Below, piece after piece: positions 46,056-57,374 of a stretch of 64,000 bases of DNA (its first letter is position 1; each line of letters starts with the position of its first letter). Made by a program: the position numbers and the translations under genes. Below the pieces are notes generated by a model. The model was not told the DNA's origin and ran no database searches. It worked only from the letters and a program-made list of their open reading frames with translations. The DNA is from Deltaproteobacteria bacterium (lineage in GTDB: Bacteria > Desulfobacterota > Binatia > Binatales > Binataceae): the NCBI GenBank assembly GCA_021794015.1, contig JAJYRQ010000015.1, positions 8,154 through 72,153 of the forward strand. Direction: 5' to 3'.

Positions 46056-47114
46056 CTACACCACCATCCGCAGGCCCAGCAGGAAGACAACGTAGGCGCC
46101 GCCGCCGAACAGCAACTCCAGAAGGCCGAGCCGGTCGTCACCCAAGCGCCACCATAGCCAAGCCGCCGAGGCCACAATCACTGCGCCCGCCCAGAGCTCC
46201 GGCGCGCCAAGGCGCCACGGACTCCAGATCAGTCCCAGCGCCGCAGGCACACAGGTCTGGAAGACCATGCCTCCGGTGAGATTGGAGATCGCCAAGTAAT
46301 CCCTGCGCCGGCGCACCCAGATTATGGCGTTGAAATTCTCCGGCAACTCCGCCGCAAACGGGCTTAAGATGAGCGACAGCACATCCGCCCGCAAGGAAGA
46401 GGCCGCCGCCAGTCGGGCGAGCACCGCGACAAACTGGCGCGCCGCCAGCAGCATCAGCCCCAAACTAAATACCAACTGGACCAGCGTGAGGTGGGTCTTG
46501 GGCCTTGCCTCGCGATGACCCAAAAGGCGGCCCAGGCGCAAGCCTTGCGCAACGCCCGCCTGCGGATCGCGTGCCATCTGCAGCATGCCTCGGGCGTACG
46601 CGGCGTAAGCAAGCAGCAGGCCAACGGCCGCGCCCGCGCGTACCAGCCGCCCCGCGCTGCTCAAACCCAGACCCAGCACCACACCAAAGAGCGCCAGAAA
46701 CAAGCCCAGGTCCCAGCGCAAGCCGCCACGCGCGACCCTAAGCGCCGCCTCGCTCCCCCGCGACCGGCGAGCCAGCGCGGCCAGTCCCACGATGAACAGC
46801 GAGAGCGTTGAAAGCAAAAGCGGTGCCCCCACGATCGCCCCGATTCCAACCTCGCGGTAGAGCGCCGGGCCGCGATACCCGCCTATCATCCCAAAGGCTG
46901 AAATTAGGGTCTCGGGCAAGGCCGCGCCTACGCCGGCAAGCAAACTGCCTACGGCTGCCTCGGCCAGTCCGAAGCGCTCGCCGGTCCATTCCGCCGCGTT
47001 GGTGAAAAGCTCAGAGCTTACCAGCATCGCAACGGTGCAAACCAGCAACAAAAGCAAATGCTGCAACAAACCCGGCTTCCCTCTGTCCCCGGCCAGTAAA
47101 GCGGGCAGGGCCAT
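46056..47114 (-). CDS. Sodium/calcium exchanger family (CaCA) membrane protein
   Basis: Two alpha-repeat motifs GAALPETLISAF and AAELPENFNAII in a polytopic protein. Confidence 0.75.
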   Translation of the reverse strand: MALPALLAGDRGKPGLLQHLLLLLVCTVAMLVSSELFTNAAEWTGERFGLAEAAVGSLLAGVGAALPETLISAFGMIGGYRGPALYREVGIGAIVGAPLLLSTLSLFIVGLAALARRSRGSEAALRVARGGLRWDLGLFLALFGVVLGLGLSSAGRLVRAGAAVGLLLAYAAYARGMLQMARDPQAGVAQGLRLGRLLGHREARPKTHLTLVQLVFSLGLMLLAARQFVAVLARLAAASSLRADVLSLILSPFAAELPENFNAIIWVRRRRDYLAISNLTGGMVFQTCVPAALGLIWSPWRLGAPELWAGAVIVASAAWLWWRLGDDRLGLLELLFGGGAYVVFLLGLRMVV

Positions 47115-47274
47115 TGGCCTTTTGCCGGGCCTCGCCGTTGTACGCCCCAGCGCCAAAGGGAGACAAGCACCTAACTACCGCACCTTTGGTCCGGCCCGCC
47201 GCTTGCTTGCGAATTATAGCCCGGGAAGCGGATGTCCCGAAAAAGAAATAGACCGAGAAACGGGGTGCAGCGCT

Positions 47275-47303
47275 TTGACTTGGCTGGCGGGTATGGTTAA
47301 ATT
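47275..47303 (+). promoter_or_regulatory. Candidate sigma-70 promoter of rpoD (TTGACT-17 nt-TAAATT)
   Basis: -35 TTGACT 47275-47280, 17-nt spacer, -10 TAAATT 47298-47303, ~150 nt upstream of rpoD. AGGAAGG Shine-Dalgarno before the ATG at 47457. Confidence 0.35.
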
Positions 47304-47456
47304 AGCCCTGAGCAAGTAGGATGAGCTGTCCCCGTCTACCTTGACCCTTTTCCCTGGTTTTGCCAATCTTGCTGCCCCGCGCCCACGGGGCCGCAAATGG
47401 CTTAGCACCTTCGGTTTAACCGCCGGCAGCAAGCGGCGACGCCCCAGCAGGAAGGC

Positions 47457-49208
47457 ATGAAGCGCAAGCAAACCAGCAAGGAGCTTCAGAGTCTGGTCGA
47501 TCTCGGCCGTGAACAAGGCTATCTCACGTTCGATCAGGTAAACGAGCTTTTGCCGCAGGACCTTACCTCGCCCACCGACCTGCGGGCGGCTCTCGACAGC
47601 TTCCAGGACCTGGACATCAAGGTGCTCGAGGAAACCCCCGCCGAAACCAGCGAGTCCGAGCTTGAGCCGGAACTCAAGGAGGAAGCCGAAGAGGCGGCGG
47701 AAAAGACCTACACCGACACCGCCGACTCCTCCGACCCGGTCCGTCTTTACCTGAAAGAGATGGGCAACTTCCAGCTCCTCTCCCGCGAGCAGGAGGTCGA
47801 GATCGCCAAGCGTATCGAAGAAGGGGAAAAAGAAGTCGAGGCCGAGGTTTTGCGTTCTCCGGTTATGCTCGACCACGTCATCGCGCTTTGCGCGCGGGTC
47901 GAGGCCGGCGAAGCCAGCCTGCGCGAGGTCTTCGAGGAAAGCGAGGAGGGCGAGCCGGACGAGGAACGAGGCAGCGAGGCCGACGAAAAGCAGCGCAAGC
48001 GGCTGCTGAGCGCCGCCCAAAAGCTCGCCGACCTGCGTCACAGGATCAACGCCGGCGAAGAGCGGCTGCGGGCCCGGCCCGCGCCCCGGCGCAAAACCGC
48101 ACTCCAGACCCAACTGGCTCGGCTTCGGGGACAGGCCAAGTCGCTCCTTGCGGCCCTGCAGCTCTCGCGCCGCGTCTACGAGGCGGTAATCACCGAGCTG
48201 CGCCACCTGCTCAACGAGCACCGCGCCGCGCAGGCGCTAATCCACCGCTACGAAACCGCTACCGCGCGTTCGCGCACCCAGCTTTTGCGCGAGGCGGCCG
48301 GAGCCGAAGACCGCCGCCACATCCTCAAGGTCAACGGCACGCGGGAAAACCTCCTCGATATCGCCGCCCGCATCCGCGAAGCGCAGCGCACCATGCGCTC
48401 GGTCGAGCGCAAGGCGATGGCCGACGGCGAACAACTGGCCAACTCCCTGGCGGTCATCGGCGCCGGCCTGGGAAAAAGCCGCCGGGCCAAGAAGGAGCTG
48501 ACCGAGGCCAATTTGCGCCTGGTGGTGAGCCTGGCCAAGCGCTACACCAACCGCGGCCTGGGCTTTCTCGACCTCATCCAGGAAGGCAACATCGGGCTGA
48601 TGCGCGCGGTCGACAAGTTCGAGTACCAGCGCGGCTACAAATTCTCGACCTACGCCACCTGGTGGATTCGCCAGTCGATGTCGCGCGCCATCGCCGACCA
48701 GGGACGCACCATCCGCATCCCGGTGCACATGGTCGAGACGATCAACAAGCTCTTGCGGGTAACCCGGCTGCTGGTCCAGCGCCTGGGGCACGAGCCGAGC
48801 CCCGAAGAGATCGCCGAGCAGATGGAGATGCCGCTCGACAAGGTCCAGAAGGTGCTCAAGATCGTCAAGGAGCCCATCTCGCTCGAAACCCCGATCGGCG
48901 ACGAGGAGGAAAGCTCGCTGGGCGACTTCGTCGAGGACGAACTCGCACCCTCGCCGCTCGAGGCGGCCATCCAGGGCAACCTCGGCGAGCAGACGCGCAA
49001 GGTGCTCGCCACGCTCACCCCGCGCGAGGAGCAAATCCTCAGGATGCGCTTCGGCATCGGCCAGAAAAGCGACTTCACCCTCGAGGAAGTCGGCAAGCAA
49101 TTCGCCGTCACCCGCGAGCGTATCCGGCAGATCGAGGCCAAGGCGCTGCGCAAGCTTAGGCAGACCACCCGCGCCCGCAACCTGGAAGGCTTCGTCAGCC
49201 ACAATTAG
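47457..49208 (+). CDS. rpoD: RNA polymerase primary sigma factor
   Basis: Acidic region 1.1, region 2 ([35 protein letters not shown]), region 3, region 4 ([15 protein letters not shown]...[27 protein letters not shown]). Confidence 0.95.
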
Positions 49209-49352
49209 CCGGTCGCACCCGCCGGGTGCGGCGCCCGCCGGACGCCCTGCGGCCTGGCCGTTTCGGTTCGGCGCGCGGACGCCTCCCTGGTACCAGGAGC
49301 AACGCCGGGCTTTCGTTGGCGCCAGCCAACCCCCGCCGGCCCTACATGTTTT

Positions 49353-49470
49353 GATAATGCGGGCGACGACGACCGCTTCCGCGCCACCGGCATCGCCGCC
49401 TATCTCAAGAACGGCGGCACGCTCGAGAAGGCCGCCGCCATGGCCAACCACTCCAGCACCCGCACGTCGG
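49353..49470 (+). pseudogene. Tyrosine recombinase (phage-integrase family) C-terminal fragment
   Basis: A frame +2 translation ...RFRATGIAAYLKNGGTLEKAAAMANHSSTRT resembles the integrase C-terminal box II region (R-x-T..Y L.NGG.LE....MA.H.S..T). The frame then breaks before the catalytic Tyr. No N-terminal part is present (rpoD ends at 49208). Confidence 0.4.
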
Positions 49471-49484
49471 CCGGCGGGGCAGTT

Positions 49485-49614
49485 CGAGTTCGAGTTCCGC
49501 GACGGCGATCTGCGCGTCTTCTATCGCGTCCAGGACGACCAAGCGTTGGTTGACGCCATCGGCCGCAAACGCGGCAGCCGGCTTTTTATCGGCGGCAGGA
49601 GCTTGACTCTATGA
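49485..49614 (+). pseudogene. RelE/ParE-family toxin C-terminal fragment
   Basis: ...FRDGDLRVFYRVQDDQALVDAIGRKRGSRLF matches the RelE/ParE C-terminal YRIIYRV.D...V.VL.IGHR motif. The preceding 45 codons of the same ORF (49351..) are Pro/Ala/Arg-rich and not toxin-like. Confidence 0.45.
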
Positions 49615-49853
49615 AAATCGAGAATATCCGCGAGGTCAAAACCCGCTCGAGCCGCCACGTTAGGGAACTTCCTCGCAGCGGTTCAGTCGTGATCACTAAG
49701 AACGGCCGGCCGTGCGCCGCCCTGATACCGGTCACCGAGGACACCGACCTCGAAGCTTTGGCGTTGTCCCAGAACAAGCGCTTCTGGAAACTCATCGACG
49801 AGGCGATCGAACGCGGCAAAAAAGGGGGCTTTGTCGATCTGGCGGACCTCTAA
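49611..49853 (+). CDS. Phd/YefM-family type II antitoxin (intact, 80 aa)
   Basis: MKIENIREVKTRSSRHVRELPRSGSVVITKNGRPCAALIPVTEDTDLEAL fits the Phd/YefM fold (beta-strand ITK/R.GKP.AV..P). ~57% GC versus ~68% in flanking genes. Confidence 0.7.
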   Translation: MKIENIREVKTRSSRHVRELPRSGSVVITKNGRPCAALIPVTEDTDLEALALSQNKRFWKLIDEAIERGKKGGFVDLADL

Positions 49854-49884
49854 CAGGATGCTGAAAAACTACTTTCAGCCCTCA

Positions 49885-49914
49885 TTGCTCAGTTGTCGTA
49901 ACACATCGTAAGAT
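49885..49914 (+). promoter_or_regulatory. Candidate sigma-70 promoter for the PIN-like gene (TTGCTC-18 nt-TAAGAT)
   Basis: In the 146-nt AT-enriched spacer. GAGG sits 6 nt before the GTG start at 50000. Confidence 0.25.
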
Positions 49915-49999
49915 AGCGTGGGCCACGATGGCCTAAGCCTCAAGGCGGTCAAAAAGCCTTTTTCCGCAACCTGCTAAAGAGGCATTAACGAGGCTTCGC

Positions 50000-50920
50000 G
50001 TGAACCGTAACTCTACTGGCGCGCTTCTTTACTTCGACACAAACGTATTCGATCCAAGGGATGGTGTGCCTGAAGCGAAGGAGCCTCTTATTCTCAACGT
50101 TCTCCACTCCCAGCGCTTCCACCTGGTGTTCGACCTTGATTGCTTTTTGGAGCCGCTGCTCGCGTTCCAAGGGCCTGCGGATGACGCGACGCCAAGGAGG
50201 GCTGCGCGCCAACTCGAACGGATGTTGGAATGGTGCGATCACCGCAGAATCGTGACACCACCGCAATTGCTGCTGGTCCAATCGGTGCGTTGGTACTCGG
50301 GGCTGCAGCCTCGGGTAGAAGCGTTTCTCGATAGAGAGAAACTAAACGAGCAGGTTGGAAGGGAACTGGCAAACTGGGACCCGGTTCGCTCGCCGCGGAA
50401 AGCATTTTGGCAAGAAATTGCTTCCGACGCGCAACGCGAGCGACAAATCTCCCAAGACAGCTTCACGACTTTGCTTCAGGAGCTCGGTCCACGTGACGGT
50501 TTCGCGCCGGGCGCCCGAATCCCGGCCTTCGATGAGTTCTGGAACGAGCACAAGTACAGGGTGGCTCAGACCCTCGTGGAGAGCGTCAGCGAAGAGTTGC
50601 AGGAGCCGAGTCTTCGGCAGCGCCGTGGCGAGCGGAGCATCGACGGATTGCTCGCCGTCAGGTGCGTGAACCTGTATGTTCTCGCGACTATCGCACACAT
50701 GTACCCCCGCTTCTACAACGACGGTCGGCAAATTCCGAAGATCAGGCAAAGTGACGCTGCCGATCTGCGACACGCCGTCGCGGCGTCCGTAGCCGAGATT
50801 TTCGTTACAAACGATTCGCGCCTTTATAGGGGCCTTTCGGCTATTCCGATCAAGGACTTCAGGATCGTCGAGTTGAATGCGTTCCTGACGGAGTTGGGAA
50901 ACACGGCTACAGGGCAGTAA
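50000..50920 (+). CDS. PIN-like nuclease-fold protein with ~170-aa internal insertion (306 aa), candidate toxin/defence effector
   Basis: N-terminal LLYFDTNVFDP is PIN motif 1 (Asp in beta1). C-terminal SDAADLRHAVAASVAEIFVTNDSRL is the PIN D-x3-A-x-A...T-x-D motif. Between them lies a helical ~170-aa region with no counterpart in ~130-aa VapC proteins. GTG start with RBS. ~55% GC. Confidence 0.5.
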   Translation: MNRNSTGALLYFDTNVFDPRDGVPEAKEPLILNVLHSQRFHLVFDLDCFLEPLLAFQGPADDATPRRAARQLERMLEWCDHRRIVTPPQLLLVQSVRWYSGLQPRVEAFLDREKLNEQVGRELANWDPVRSPRKAFWQEIASDAQRERQISQDSFTTLLQELGPRDGFAPGARIPAFDEFWNEHKYRVAQTLVESVSEELQEPSLRQRRGERSIDGLLAVRCVNLYVLATIAHMYPRFYNDGRQIPKIRQSDAADLRHAVAASVAEIFVTNDSRLYRGLSAIPIKDFRIVELNAFLTELGNTATGQ

Positions 50921-51383
50921 TGCGAGATCGGATGCGAAAAAGGGAGGTTATCACCCGGAATTTGCGTTTTGGCTTCTCGCTTCTTGCGTTCATAGCTCAA
51001 TTCGGAGGCGTAATACAAGGCTCTGAGGGCCGCCGAGGACGGCGGCTGGCGCGCGAGGCCTGCCCCGCCTGCCCCGAGCTTTGTCGAGGGGAGCCCTGCC
51101 GCTTCGCTGCCCGCCAAGGCGCCCTGGTGCAACCGCCGCTGGATTCTTTTCGCGGTTCGGCGAACGAACGAGGCGCTGGAGAACGGTCCGCAATTCCACC
51201 TCCGGCTCCTTGCTTAAGCGCTCATGCATATCCGGAAGCGGCCGACAGGGAGCAAGCGTGCTTTGCAACGCCCGCCGTGACGGCCTGGCCAAACGTGGCT
51301 TGCGGGCCCAAAACAAAGGCGATGGCGCCAGGTATCGCGGGGACCAGAGCCTCCAGTCCGGAGCCTTTGCTGCGCCAACCAAA

Positions 51384-52661
51384 TCAGGGGATGACGCCCT
51401 GGGAGCGCAGCCGGGCTAGCTCGGCCCGGCTAAAGCCGGCCGCTTCGAGCACCGCGCCGGTGTGCTCGCCAAGAAGCGGCGGACGCCGGGGTCGCCCGCG
51501 GCTTGCGCTCAACTTTACCGGCAAGCCGGTGGCGAAAACCTCGCCGCGCTGCGGATGCGTAAGTTTGAGCAGCATCCGGCGCGCCGCTACCTGCGGATGG
51601 ACGAACAGCTCCTTCAGGTTAAGCACGGGCCCGGCCGGGATGCCATGCTTGGCGAACAGCCGCACCCACTGCACCGCGCGGCGCCCGGCCAGCGCCCGTT
51701 CGATCTCGGCGGTCAAGGCAGCGCGGTTCTCAACGCGCAGCCGCTCGCTCTCGAAACGGGGATCGGCGGCCAGTTCGGGGCGCCCGATGGCCCGCACGAA
51801 GCTCTGCCACATCCGCTCGCTGCCGACCGCGATGTTGAGCGGGCGATCGGCCGCCATGAAAAGGCCGTAGGGTGAGACGAGCGGGTGATGATTGCCCTGC
51901 GGCTTGGGGCTTTTGCCGGTCTCGAAAAAGCTGCCCGCTGACCAACTGAGAATCCCGACTGCGGCCTCGAGCAGCGAGGTTTCCACGCGCTGGCCGCGCC
52001 CCGTGTGCCGGCGCGCCAGGAGCGCCATCACGATGCCGTAAGCGGCAAACATCCCGGCCAAAAGGTCGCAGATCGCCACGCCCATCCGCATCGGCCCGCT
52101 CTGCGGCGTGCCGGTAACGCTCATCAGGCCGGAGAATCCCTGCACGACCTGGTCGAAGCCGGGCGCGTCTCGCAGCGGGCCGCTTGCGCCAAAGCCGCTG
52201 ACGTTGCAGGTGATGATCCGCGGGTTGAGCCTCGACAAGACTCTGTACCCCAAGCCCAACCGCTCCATCACGCGCGGACGAAAATTGTCGATCACCACGT
52301 CGGCGCCCCGAACAAGCTTAAGCAGCGCCGCGCGGCCGGCCGGCTGCCGGTAATCGAGCTGCAGACTCTTCTTCGAGCGATTTACGCTGAAAAAGAAATA
52401 GCCGTCCCGGCCGGGCGCGCTGCCGGGGTCCTGGCGCGCCCCGACAAGCGGCTCGACCTTGATGACTTCGGCGCCGTAGTCGCCAAGAAGCTGCGTGCAA
52501 AAAGGCCCGGCCACGTAGCGGGTTAGATCAATAACCCGCACGCCGGCCAGCGGACTGCGCCCGCCCCCGGCACGCCGCTGCCGAGCGCCCGCCGGCGCTT
52601 GCCGCAACGAAGCGGGGCTCACGGCAGCGCTTGGCGCGCCGGCCTGAGAGCGCCCAGGCAA
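51384..52661 (-). CDS. Family III CoA-transferase (CaiB/BaiF/Frc family)
   Basis: GVRVIDLTRYVAGPFCTQLLGDYGAEVIKVEP N-terminal motif; catalytic Asp region. The real start is probably an internal GTG (~52545), since the N-terminal 40 aa are low complexity. Confidence 0.8.
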   Translation of the reverse strand: MPGRSQAGAPSAAVSPASLRQAPAGARQRRAGGGRSPLAGVRVIDLTRYVAGPFCTQLLGDYGAEVIKVEPLVGARQDPGSAPGRDGYFFFSVNRSKKSLQLDYRQPAGRAALLKLVRGADVVIDNFRPRVMERLGLGYRVLSRLNPRIITCNVSGFGASGPLRDAPGFDQVVQGFSGLMSVTGTPQSGPMRMGVAICDLLAGMFAAYGIVMALLARRHTGRGQRVETSLLEAAVGILSWSAGSFFETGKSPKPQGNHHPLVSPYGLFMAADRPLNIAVGSERMWQSFVRAIGRPELAADPRFESERLRVENRAALTAEIERALAGRRAVQWVRLFAKHGIPAGPVLNLKELFVHPQVAARRMLLKLTHPQRGEVFATGLPVKLSASRGRPRRPPLLGEHTGAVLEAAGFSRAELARLRSQGVIP

Positions 52662-56453: not shown

Positions 56454-57374
56454 TTGCGGGAAGCCGAGTCGATGCGCCAGGCAATCGAATCTTTCGCCAC
56501 AGCTTTGCTCACCGCCCTGGGCGGGGCGGCCAACACTGCTGCTGCCTACCGGCGCGACCTTTGCGACTTTCGCGCCTTTTTGCTGCGCCGTTTTCCCGCG
56601 CTTAGCACGGAGGGCGGTGAGGTTGACTTGGCGCGAATCGAGCCGGGCCACGCCAGGGCCTACCTAGCCGACCTTTTGCGCCGCGCCAGCCGCGCCACGG
56701 CGCAGCGGCGCCTGGCGGCGATCAAGGCCTTCTTCCGGCACTTGGAGGCGGTCGAGGGTCTGCCCAACCCGGCAGTCGCGCTCAAAACGCCCAAGGCCGA
56801 ACGCCGGCTGCCGCGCGTGCCGGCTGAGCGCGAGGTCCTGACACTCATCGAGGCAGACGCGGAAAAGCAGGCGCCGCTTGCCTTGCGCGACCGCGCCATC
56901 GTCGAACTGCTCTACTCCTCGGGATTGCGGGTCAGCGAGTTGGCCGCGCTCAACTGGCAGGAGATCGACGCGCGGGTGGGCGTTGTAATGGTGCGGTCGG
57001 CCAAGGGAAACAAGGACCGTGTGGTGCCGGTGGGAGAGCCCGCCCTGGCCGCGTTGCGCAACTGGCGGGCCGCGGCGCCGGCTCCCGTTGCGCCCGACGG
57101 CCCGGTGTTTGTCAGCCGGCGGGGACGCCGGCTGACGGCGCGCAGCGTCGAGAAACTGTTTGAGCGCCGGGCTGTGCGCGCCGGCTTGGAGGCCTCGGTC
57201 AATCCGCACGCGCTGCGCCACAGCTTTGCCACCCATCTGCTTGAGCGGGGCGCCGATCTGCGCTCGATCCAGCAGATGCTGGGCCATGCCAGCTTGAGCA
57301 GCACTCAGCGCTATACTCATGTCACGGTGAAGCATCTAAGGGAGGCCTATGCGCGCGCGCATCCGCGAGCCTGA
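56454..57374 (+). CDS. xerC: Tyrosine recombinase XerC/XerD family
   Basis: [18 protein letters not shown]-terminal motif. Catalytic R...[39 protein letters not shown] (R-H-R-Y). Confidence 0.85.

Follow-up and report, generated by a model that had tools for sequence, protein, structure and literature searches.

Does the small low-GC islet between rpoD and a family III CoA-transferase gene in a Deltaproteobacteria bacterium of the family Binataceae encode a new kind of toxin-antitoxin (TA) pair? The stretch of DNA analyzed here (the window) comprises 64,000 nucleotides (nt) of contig JAJYRQ010000015.1 (positions 8,154 to 72,153; assembly GCA_021794015.1). Its islet contains an intact gene for a Phd/YefM antitoxin, followed by an intact gene for a PIN-like protein of 306 amino acids (aa). 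The original prediction, made from the sequence alone, had placed both genes in a mobile or addiction island, acquired by horizontal transfer and partly eroded since, and had regarded them as an atypical pair of antitoxin and large PIN protein. The island is supported by GC content and GC at third codon positions (GC3), by an integrase fragment and by the stump of a toxin gene, the pairing is not. With a probability of about 0.7, an integrating mobile element has eroded to a stump between rpoD and the CoA-transferase gene, leaving an orphan antitoxin gene and a separate gene for a predicted stand-alone PIN-fold nuclease.

The question of whether Phd is the partner of the PIN-like protein was addressed by comparing the occurrence of both genes. 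Their adjacency was confined to contigs that carry this one rpoD islet and have flanks ~99.5% identical to the window. Elsewhere, ~30 independent loci with a member of the PIN-like family contain neither a Phd gene nor any shared neighbor, so that the pair fails the check for conserved synteny that the original prediction itself had set. The two families also differ in abundance, with at least 668 clusters for Phd versus 26 for the close PIN-like family. Within the islet, the 306-aa gene starts 146 nt past the Phd gene and forms a cistron of its own, preceded by a Shine-Dalgarno sequence. The hallmarks of VapBC modules are missing as well: no adjacent antitoxin is conserved with the PIN-like gene across the ~30 independent loci, and instead of a compact single-domain PIN toxin of ~130–150 aa the gene encodes 306 aa including a helical insert of ~190 residues. 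A type III arrangement with an RNA antitoxin was also considered and rejected, the spacer between the two genes being free of tandem or direct repeats.

Phd-type antitoxins commonly pair with ordinary VapC/PIN toxins, and such a pair is present in contig L002 (4294–4949). This precedent, the intact state of both islet genes, their adjacency on the same strand and the retention of this arrangement in all of the at least eight islet-bearing contigs would be in line with a working atypical type II TA pair, in which Phd is kept to neutralize the PIN nuclease. Such a pair nevertheless appears very improbable, given that the synteny is limited to one near-identical population, that the other family loci lack Phd or any conserved partner and that the genes are set apart by a spacer of 146 nt and by the PIN-like gene's own Shine-Dalgarno sequence. 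Moreover, Phd is 100% conserved in the same population in which the PIN-like gene is hypervariable, and a close homolog of Phd is paired with a different gene, namely an upstream 99-aa ParE-like toxin gene, with the same 4-nt overlap that Phd shows in the window. We infer that Phd and the PIN-like gene are neighbors by accident of island decay and not partners.

The window Phd/YefM protein scores 32.6 bits with Pfam PF02604, above the cutoff of 29.8, is 100% identical to P0174 and is, with 80 aa, full-length relative to its homologs, which form at least 668 clusters. The 120 clusters listed share 80–100% identity with it and mostly have a length of 80 aa, and several of the homologs carry the NCBI names Candidatus Binataceae or 'Deltaproteobacteria' metagenome-assembled genomes. 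Conservation of this degree is striking for an antitoxin. A search of Phd against PADLOC-DB 2.0 matched no family. The toxin stump ends and the Phd gene begins in a shared ATGA, an overlap of 4 nt. In eight sampled contigs representing one conserved chromosomal site of Binataceae (L056–L063), a Phd gene with 84% identity is preceded by the intact gene for the 99-aa ParE-like protein, again with an overlap of 4 nt. This module (2205–2743) stands between Ribonuc_L-PSP and DUF1330 genes, with the DUF1330 gene and no PIN protein downstream of Phd. Because the overlap is shared, the upstream ParE-like gene is likely to be the cognate toxin of the window Phd, leaving the latter an orphan.

In the window, the frame from 49465 reads RRPAGQFEFEFRDGDLRVFYRVQDDQALVDAIGRKRGSRLFIGGRSLTL, which is 80% identical to residues 51–99 of the 99-aa protein. 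The intact protein shows a sub-threshold match to ParE_toxin along its full length (E 7.5e-4), and the open reading frame (ORF) of the window stump matches the same model with an E-value of 0.0068. The 5′ half of the toxin gene, encoding residues 1–50, is deleted, and only residues 51–99 of 99 are left in the operon. The window thus shares with ParE/RelE-Phd/YefM modules a Phd protein above threshold, the homology to a ParE-like toxin and the layout of overlapping cistrons. It differs from most of them in its order, the toxin gene coming first as in higBA, whereas the antitoxin gene usually does. Since residues 1–50 of the toxin are lost, the module is defunct, and by sequence comparison the window Phd is the predicted orphan antitoxin of a decayed toxin-first ParE-like/Phd module.

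Directly upstream of the toxin stump, the frame from 49377 reads FRATGIAAYLKNGGTLEKAAAMANHSSTRTS and matches annotated tyrosine-type recombinases. A tblastn search with this fragment matched 158 plasmid records with 81–90% identity, and the fragment corresponds to residues 281–311 of the 331-aa integrase of L002 (68% identity). Residues 1–280 and the last ~20 residues, including the LYDR motif and the region of the catalytic tyrosine, are absent, so that the islet does not encode the complete catalytic domain with C-terminal tyrosine of a functional tyrosine recombinase. As the integrase fragment and the toxin stump abut with an overlap of 5 nt (49465–49469), a single deletion probably took away the integrase gene's 3′ end, the intervening DNA and the toxin gene's 5′ half. 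It would have fused integrase codon ~311 to toxin codon ~51 and destroyed both genes. With its segment of foreign composition and an integrase remnant beside a conserved housekeeping gene, the window resembles integrative elements of tyrosine recombinases, and in L002 and L025 homologs of its cargo gene immediately follow an integrase gene. It differs from such elements in lacking an intact integrase, direct repeats of attachment (att) sites and a tRNA target, and its left boundary cannot be defined. The island as such is an ordinary eroded integrative element.

For the 306-aa protein, a word-indexed search revealed 26 clusters with 48–99% identity, and a profile search of 1.84 billion representatives yielded 346 clusters (at 50% identity) with E <= 1e-3, mostly full-length proteins of 270–300 aa. 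A pattern-limited scan of species genomes gave two loci. Sources naming the protein call it 'hypothetical protein', and no match was obtained in Pfam, NCBIfam, PADLOC and PHROGs; the defence-protein models of PADLOC-DB 2.0 in particular yielded no family. Searches of plasmid and phage collections by tblastn, using the protein and a distant relative, gave no match either, and a sequence-profile search of the PDB returned chance matches alone. Relatives of the protein, in contrast to the window protein itself, repeatedly match the Pfam models PIN, PIN_12 and PIN_3, all of these matches being sub-threshold. They are colinear: the N-terminal ~80 residues of the relatives align to the first half of the PIN models and residues ~218–265 to the second half. 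Because the two halves map in this way, ~190 mostly helical residues (~59–244; 50174–50731) appear to be inserted in a PIN core that consists of residues 1–58 and 245–306. An alignment of the family profile to single PIN proteins of L002 (hhalign) recovered the C-terminal motif alone and weakly (E 0.003, 10% probability).

The assignment to PIN proteins is strengthened by four acidic residues, D13 (50036–50038), E51 (50150–50152), D255 (50762–50764) and D272 (50813–50815). In an alignment of 72 sequences (~22% identity), E51 is invariant, and conservation reaches 90% or more at Y11, D13, D255, H258, F268, V269 and D272. In the structural model, D13 would follow strand 8–12, E51 would lie in the helix after strand 40–42, D255 in helix 250–262 and D272 directly past strand 267–270. 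According to Matelska et al. (2017; PMC5499597), the catalytic acidic residues of PIN-like domains follow S1, S2 and S4 and stand at the N-terminus of H4, and the predicted placement of the four residues fits these positions. The modeled fold, with three alpha/beta/alpha layers and a central parallel sheet, likewise resembles solved PIN structures. The PIN-like label given to the protein by the original prediction is thus borne out by the PIN matches of the relatives and by the conserved acidic residues. No curated PIN family model is matched significantly, and the 306-aa protein belongs to an undescribed, unnamed family within the known PIN superfamily. It would be a metal-dependent (Mg2+/Mn2+) endonuclease, most likely an RNase like the PIN proteins of the VapC group.

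Compared with the VapC-group nucleases (PF01850 and relatives; PMC5499597), the protein is more than twice as long, carries the ~190 helical residues between the helices of E51 and D255, belongs to a family without a cognate upstream antitoxin of the VapB type and passes no curated PIN threshold. The nearest relative group of the family is DUF4935/PIN_12 (PF16289), which gave the best Pfam match of the relatives (13 of 72 members, sub-threshold, best E 3e-6), although the architecture is different. DUF4935 proteins have a long helical insert after S2, are usually monocistronic and of unknown function; of their ~350 aa, residues 1–200 form the PIN domain, and an additional alpha/beta region is present at the C-terminus (PMC5499597). 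Going by this published description, the 306-aa protein differs in that its PIN core ends at the extreme C-terminus without an extra domain. The window protein itself gave no match to PF16289, and thus neither reaches the Pfam gathering cutoff (32 bits) nor shows the DUF4935 architecture.

Outside the islet, the genomic contexts of the family are diverse. In L002 (5003–6963) and L025 (543–1716), a tyrosine integrase gene lies directly upstream of the PIN-like homolog on the same strand, with gaps of 3 and 41 nt, respectively. The two loci are independent, and their integrases are unrelated, with a mutual identity of only 28%. This arrangement suggests a two-gene cassette of integrase and PIN-like protein. 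The context in L002 is a TA-rich, ParAB-bearing, plasmid-like region. Other upstream neighbors in the close subfamily are BrnT/BrnA (L011), a DUF4145 protein (L015, L017), RNase E/G (L008) and ParB (contig of P0022), and L006 has none at all; for L030 a SpoVR-like neighbor was assigned by eye from an unscanned ORF translation. The DUF4145-domain proteins of the related contigs L015 (10–711) and L017 (190–906) contain an N-terminal Cys-rich segment and stand immediately upstream of the PIN-like homologs. DUF4145 often accompanies restriction or abortive-infection genes. Among the neighbors of distant members are Fic/Doc, DUF2971, Lhr, LeuRS, acyl-CoA synthetase, beta-lactamase/radical SAM, a GHKL-type ATPase-domain protein and Rep_trans. 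An all-against-all BLAST of the flanking ORFs, small ones included, identified nothing shared except for DNA-level similarity between syntenic contigs. The PIN-like gene is monocistronic and usually solitary, with no conserved neighbor.

Several copies of the gene are damaged. In L040 (3358–5369) and also in L041 it is split by an insertion sequence-type transposase (HTH_38 + rve) with the gene halves on both sides, in L019 and L028 it is truncated, and in L053 frameshifted. Integrase remnants were found near family members in the window, in L010 and in L011 (at 2.7 kb). Taken together, the damaged copies, the links to integrases and the integrase remnants imply that the PIN-like gene is dispensable, mobile and accessory. 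Alternatively, the protein could be an ordinary PIN nuclease of RNA processing or DNA repair that is unrelated to conflict and stands in the islet by chance. This would agree with the positions of distant members between genes for LeuRS, acyl-CoA synthetase, beta-lactamase/radical SAM and Lhr, with the local synteny in L049, L050 and L054, with the lack of matches to defence models and with the likewise monocistronic PIN proteins of the DUF4935 type, whose role is unknown. We regard it as unlikely nonetheless, since the family is rare and patchy (346 clusters among 1.84 billion representatives; two loci in the pattern-limited scan), many of its copies are truncated or disrupted, its neighbors are repeatedly integrases, transposases and TA modules, the GC3 of the gene is foreign in this genome and its allelic diversity is ~7-fold that of the flanks.

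This diversity was observed among contigs carrying an identical Phd gene (L064–L070), which contain seven alleles of the PIN-like gene (306, 305 and 302 aa). Between the window and L066, the gene differs by 30 substitutions and 12 indel nucleotides in 921 nt, as opposed to 12 differences across 2543 nt of left flank and 3 across the 1158 nt of the CoA-transferase gene (Fisher p 5e-10). With its ~7-fold excess of substitutions over the flanks, the gene is a hot spot of diversity in a single population, and polymorphic blocks occur in mosaic combinations among its alleles. Of the variable codons, 34 of 37 fall in residues 59–241 and three in the PIN core, with the four acidic residues untouched (binomial p 2e-5). 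The ratio of nonsynonymous to synonymous polymorphism (pN/pS) ranges from 0.8 to 2.7 among the alleles and is not significantly >1 (p 0.12). As the assemblies are metagenomic, this pattern is only a lead, which would fit recombination among divergent alleles and weak or diversifying constraint on the insert.

A pN/pS that is not below 1, the indel polymorphisms and the residues P236/R237 of the window allele at positions where the family has A/S-H could also be explained by relaxed selection, under which the PIN-like gene of this lineage would be drifting to a pseudogene as the integrase and toxin genes did before. Such a drift is quite unlikely, considering that all seven alleles keep an open frame with indels of 3 and 9 nt and that the variable codons largely spare the PIN core and leave its acidic residues intact. 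Synonymous diversity is also raised compared to rpoD, and therefore recombination of alleles is favored over simple decay.

In the reading preferred here, an eroded integrative element with an orphan antitoxin and a separate PIN-like gene, an integrating element would have arrived between rpoD and the CoA-transferase gene and eroded subsequently. The deletion described above would have joined the integrase and toxin remnants, with Phd surviving downstream as an orphan that retains the 4-nt overlap. The PIN-like protein may act as Mg2+/Mn2+-dependent endonuclease, probably on RNA, and the helical insert might cover the active site or select the substrate, thereby replacing a separate antitoxin as means of control. 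The low confidence of the insert when modeled alone suggests that it packs on the core and is not an independently folding domain. As cargo of small integrase-borne elements, the gene would have a role in conflict, i.e., defence or addiction, instead of a housekeeping function. A more far-reaching idea is that the family represents a single-gene conflict module behind tyrosine integrases, in which the insert takes over the task of an antitoxin by sensing or auto-inhibition and is under diversifying or recombination-driven selection. Selection of this kind is suggested by the mosaic alleles and by the ~7-fold excess of diversity confined to the insert within one population; as a whole, we consider this idea rather doubtful.

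Some of the results speak against the reading as an eroded element carrying a PIN-fold nuclease. The islet is flanked by neither att repeats nor a tRNA gene, and when an empty site between rpoD and the CoA-transferase gene, which would prove insertion, was sought via contigs with identical RpoD, all of them carried the islet. The window protein stays below every curated PIN threshold, with no PIN match at E <= 1, and Foldseek searches of the PDB and BFVD returned nothing significant. Modeled alone, the insert reached a predicted local distance difference test score (pLDDT) of 65, too weak for a fold search, and due to this low confidence its role is a guess. Many distant family members stand between housekeeping genes. 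Direct support for a role in conflict is lacking, as there is no match in PADLOC or PHROGs and none in the plasmid and phage collections.

All elements listed by the original prediction, from the integrase and toxin fragments to the ~460 nt of noncoding DNA, were recovered (Table 1). The predicted drop in GC content was confirmed as the deepest trough of the 64 kb (mean GC 0.660, i.e., 66.0%), its length had been overestimated. The lowest 1500-nt segment starts at 49501 (0.568, ~4 standard deviations below the mean), the lowest 300-nt segment at 49851 (0.500), and the trough extends over ~49550–51000, with host-level GC again from ~51000. As the first ~260 nt past rpoD (49209–49469) are GC-rich (0.70–0.74), the low-GC stretch measures ~1.5 kb and not ~2.2 kb. 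GC3 amounts to 0.67 in the 306-aa ORF and to 0.75 in the Phd gene, compared to 0.86 for rpoD and 0.83 for the CoA-transferase gene.

Table 1. Features of the islet and its two flanking genes (positions in the window).
Feature	Position	Strand	Basis or remark
rpoD	47457–49208	+	left flank of islet
GC-rich DNA (0.74), no feature assigned	49209–49376	.	between rpoD stop codon and first island remnant
Tyrosine recombinase/integrase pseudogene fragment, 31 codons	49377–49469	+	tblastn against plasmids; alignment to L002 integrase
ParE/RelE-like toxin stump, C-terminal 49 codons and stop	49465–49614 (codons 49465–49611)	+	80% identity to 99-aa protein of L056
Phd/YefM antitoxin gene, intact, 80 aa	49611–49853	+	Pfam PF02604
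AT-rich spacer, 146 nt, GC 0.50	49854–49999	.	GAGG Shine-Dalgarno sequence at 49990–49993, 6 nt ahead of GTG start
Predicted 306-aa PIN-fold nuclease gene, intact, GTG start	50000–50920	+	conserved family; motif and model mapping
463 nt without assignable gene	50921–51383	.	no family match
Family III CoA-transferase gene	51384–52541	-	right flank of islet

The promoter-like hexamers that had been proposed for the spacer could not be confirmed, with a scan for the sigma-70 consensus yielding no site in 49100–51500, and the spacer contained no repeats or known RNA. No tRNA gene or Rfam match was found in 49209–49376, and around the islet the searches for att-like direct repeats, tRNA genes, Rfam families, promoters and terminators gave nothing above chance. 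An ORF at 50920–51870 (+) was rejected as a gene, having no family match and overlapping the CoA-transferase gene on the opposite strand. The sister contigs L001 (9089–9401), L065, L066 and L069 contain an additional 313 nt, absent from the window at 51099/51100, and neither this segment nor the 463 nt downstream of the 306-aa gene matched Pfam or plasmids. Gene callers place a 163-aa ORF on the minus strand of the additional segment, which has no family match and resembles junk sequence.

Two further observations concern other parts of the window. A second, milder GC dip (0.58–0.61) at 47100–47700 covers the upstream region of rpoD and the part of the gene encoding its acidic N-terminus, and is probably intergenic or compositional and not foreign DNA. 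A gene for a tyrosine recombinase of the XerC/D type (56628–57314) stands beside hslV/hslU-like genes, as identified by synteny with L001 (14774–16909). Its product, 31% identical to the L002 integrase, is a recombinase of the host itself and has no relationship to the islet fragment.

The proposal of a new TA family fails, and the decayed ParE-like/Phd module accounts for the antitoxin. The window also provides a clean example of TA-module decay, with the toxin lost first and the antitoxin retained. In addition, it draws attention to a ParE-like/Phd module in which the toxin gene comes first and to its Phd family, which is highly abundant in metagenomes, with at least 668 clusters of which several bear the name Binataceae. 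The remaining value lies in an unnamed family of predicted stand-alone, split PIN nucleases (346 clusters) for which there is neither a curated model nor a partner gene. Such stand-alone nucleases pose the question of how toxicity is restrained without an antitoxin, and the combination of an intact predicted catalytic quartet and a large, variable insert would make this family a tractable test case for antitoxin-free control.

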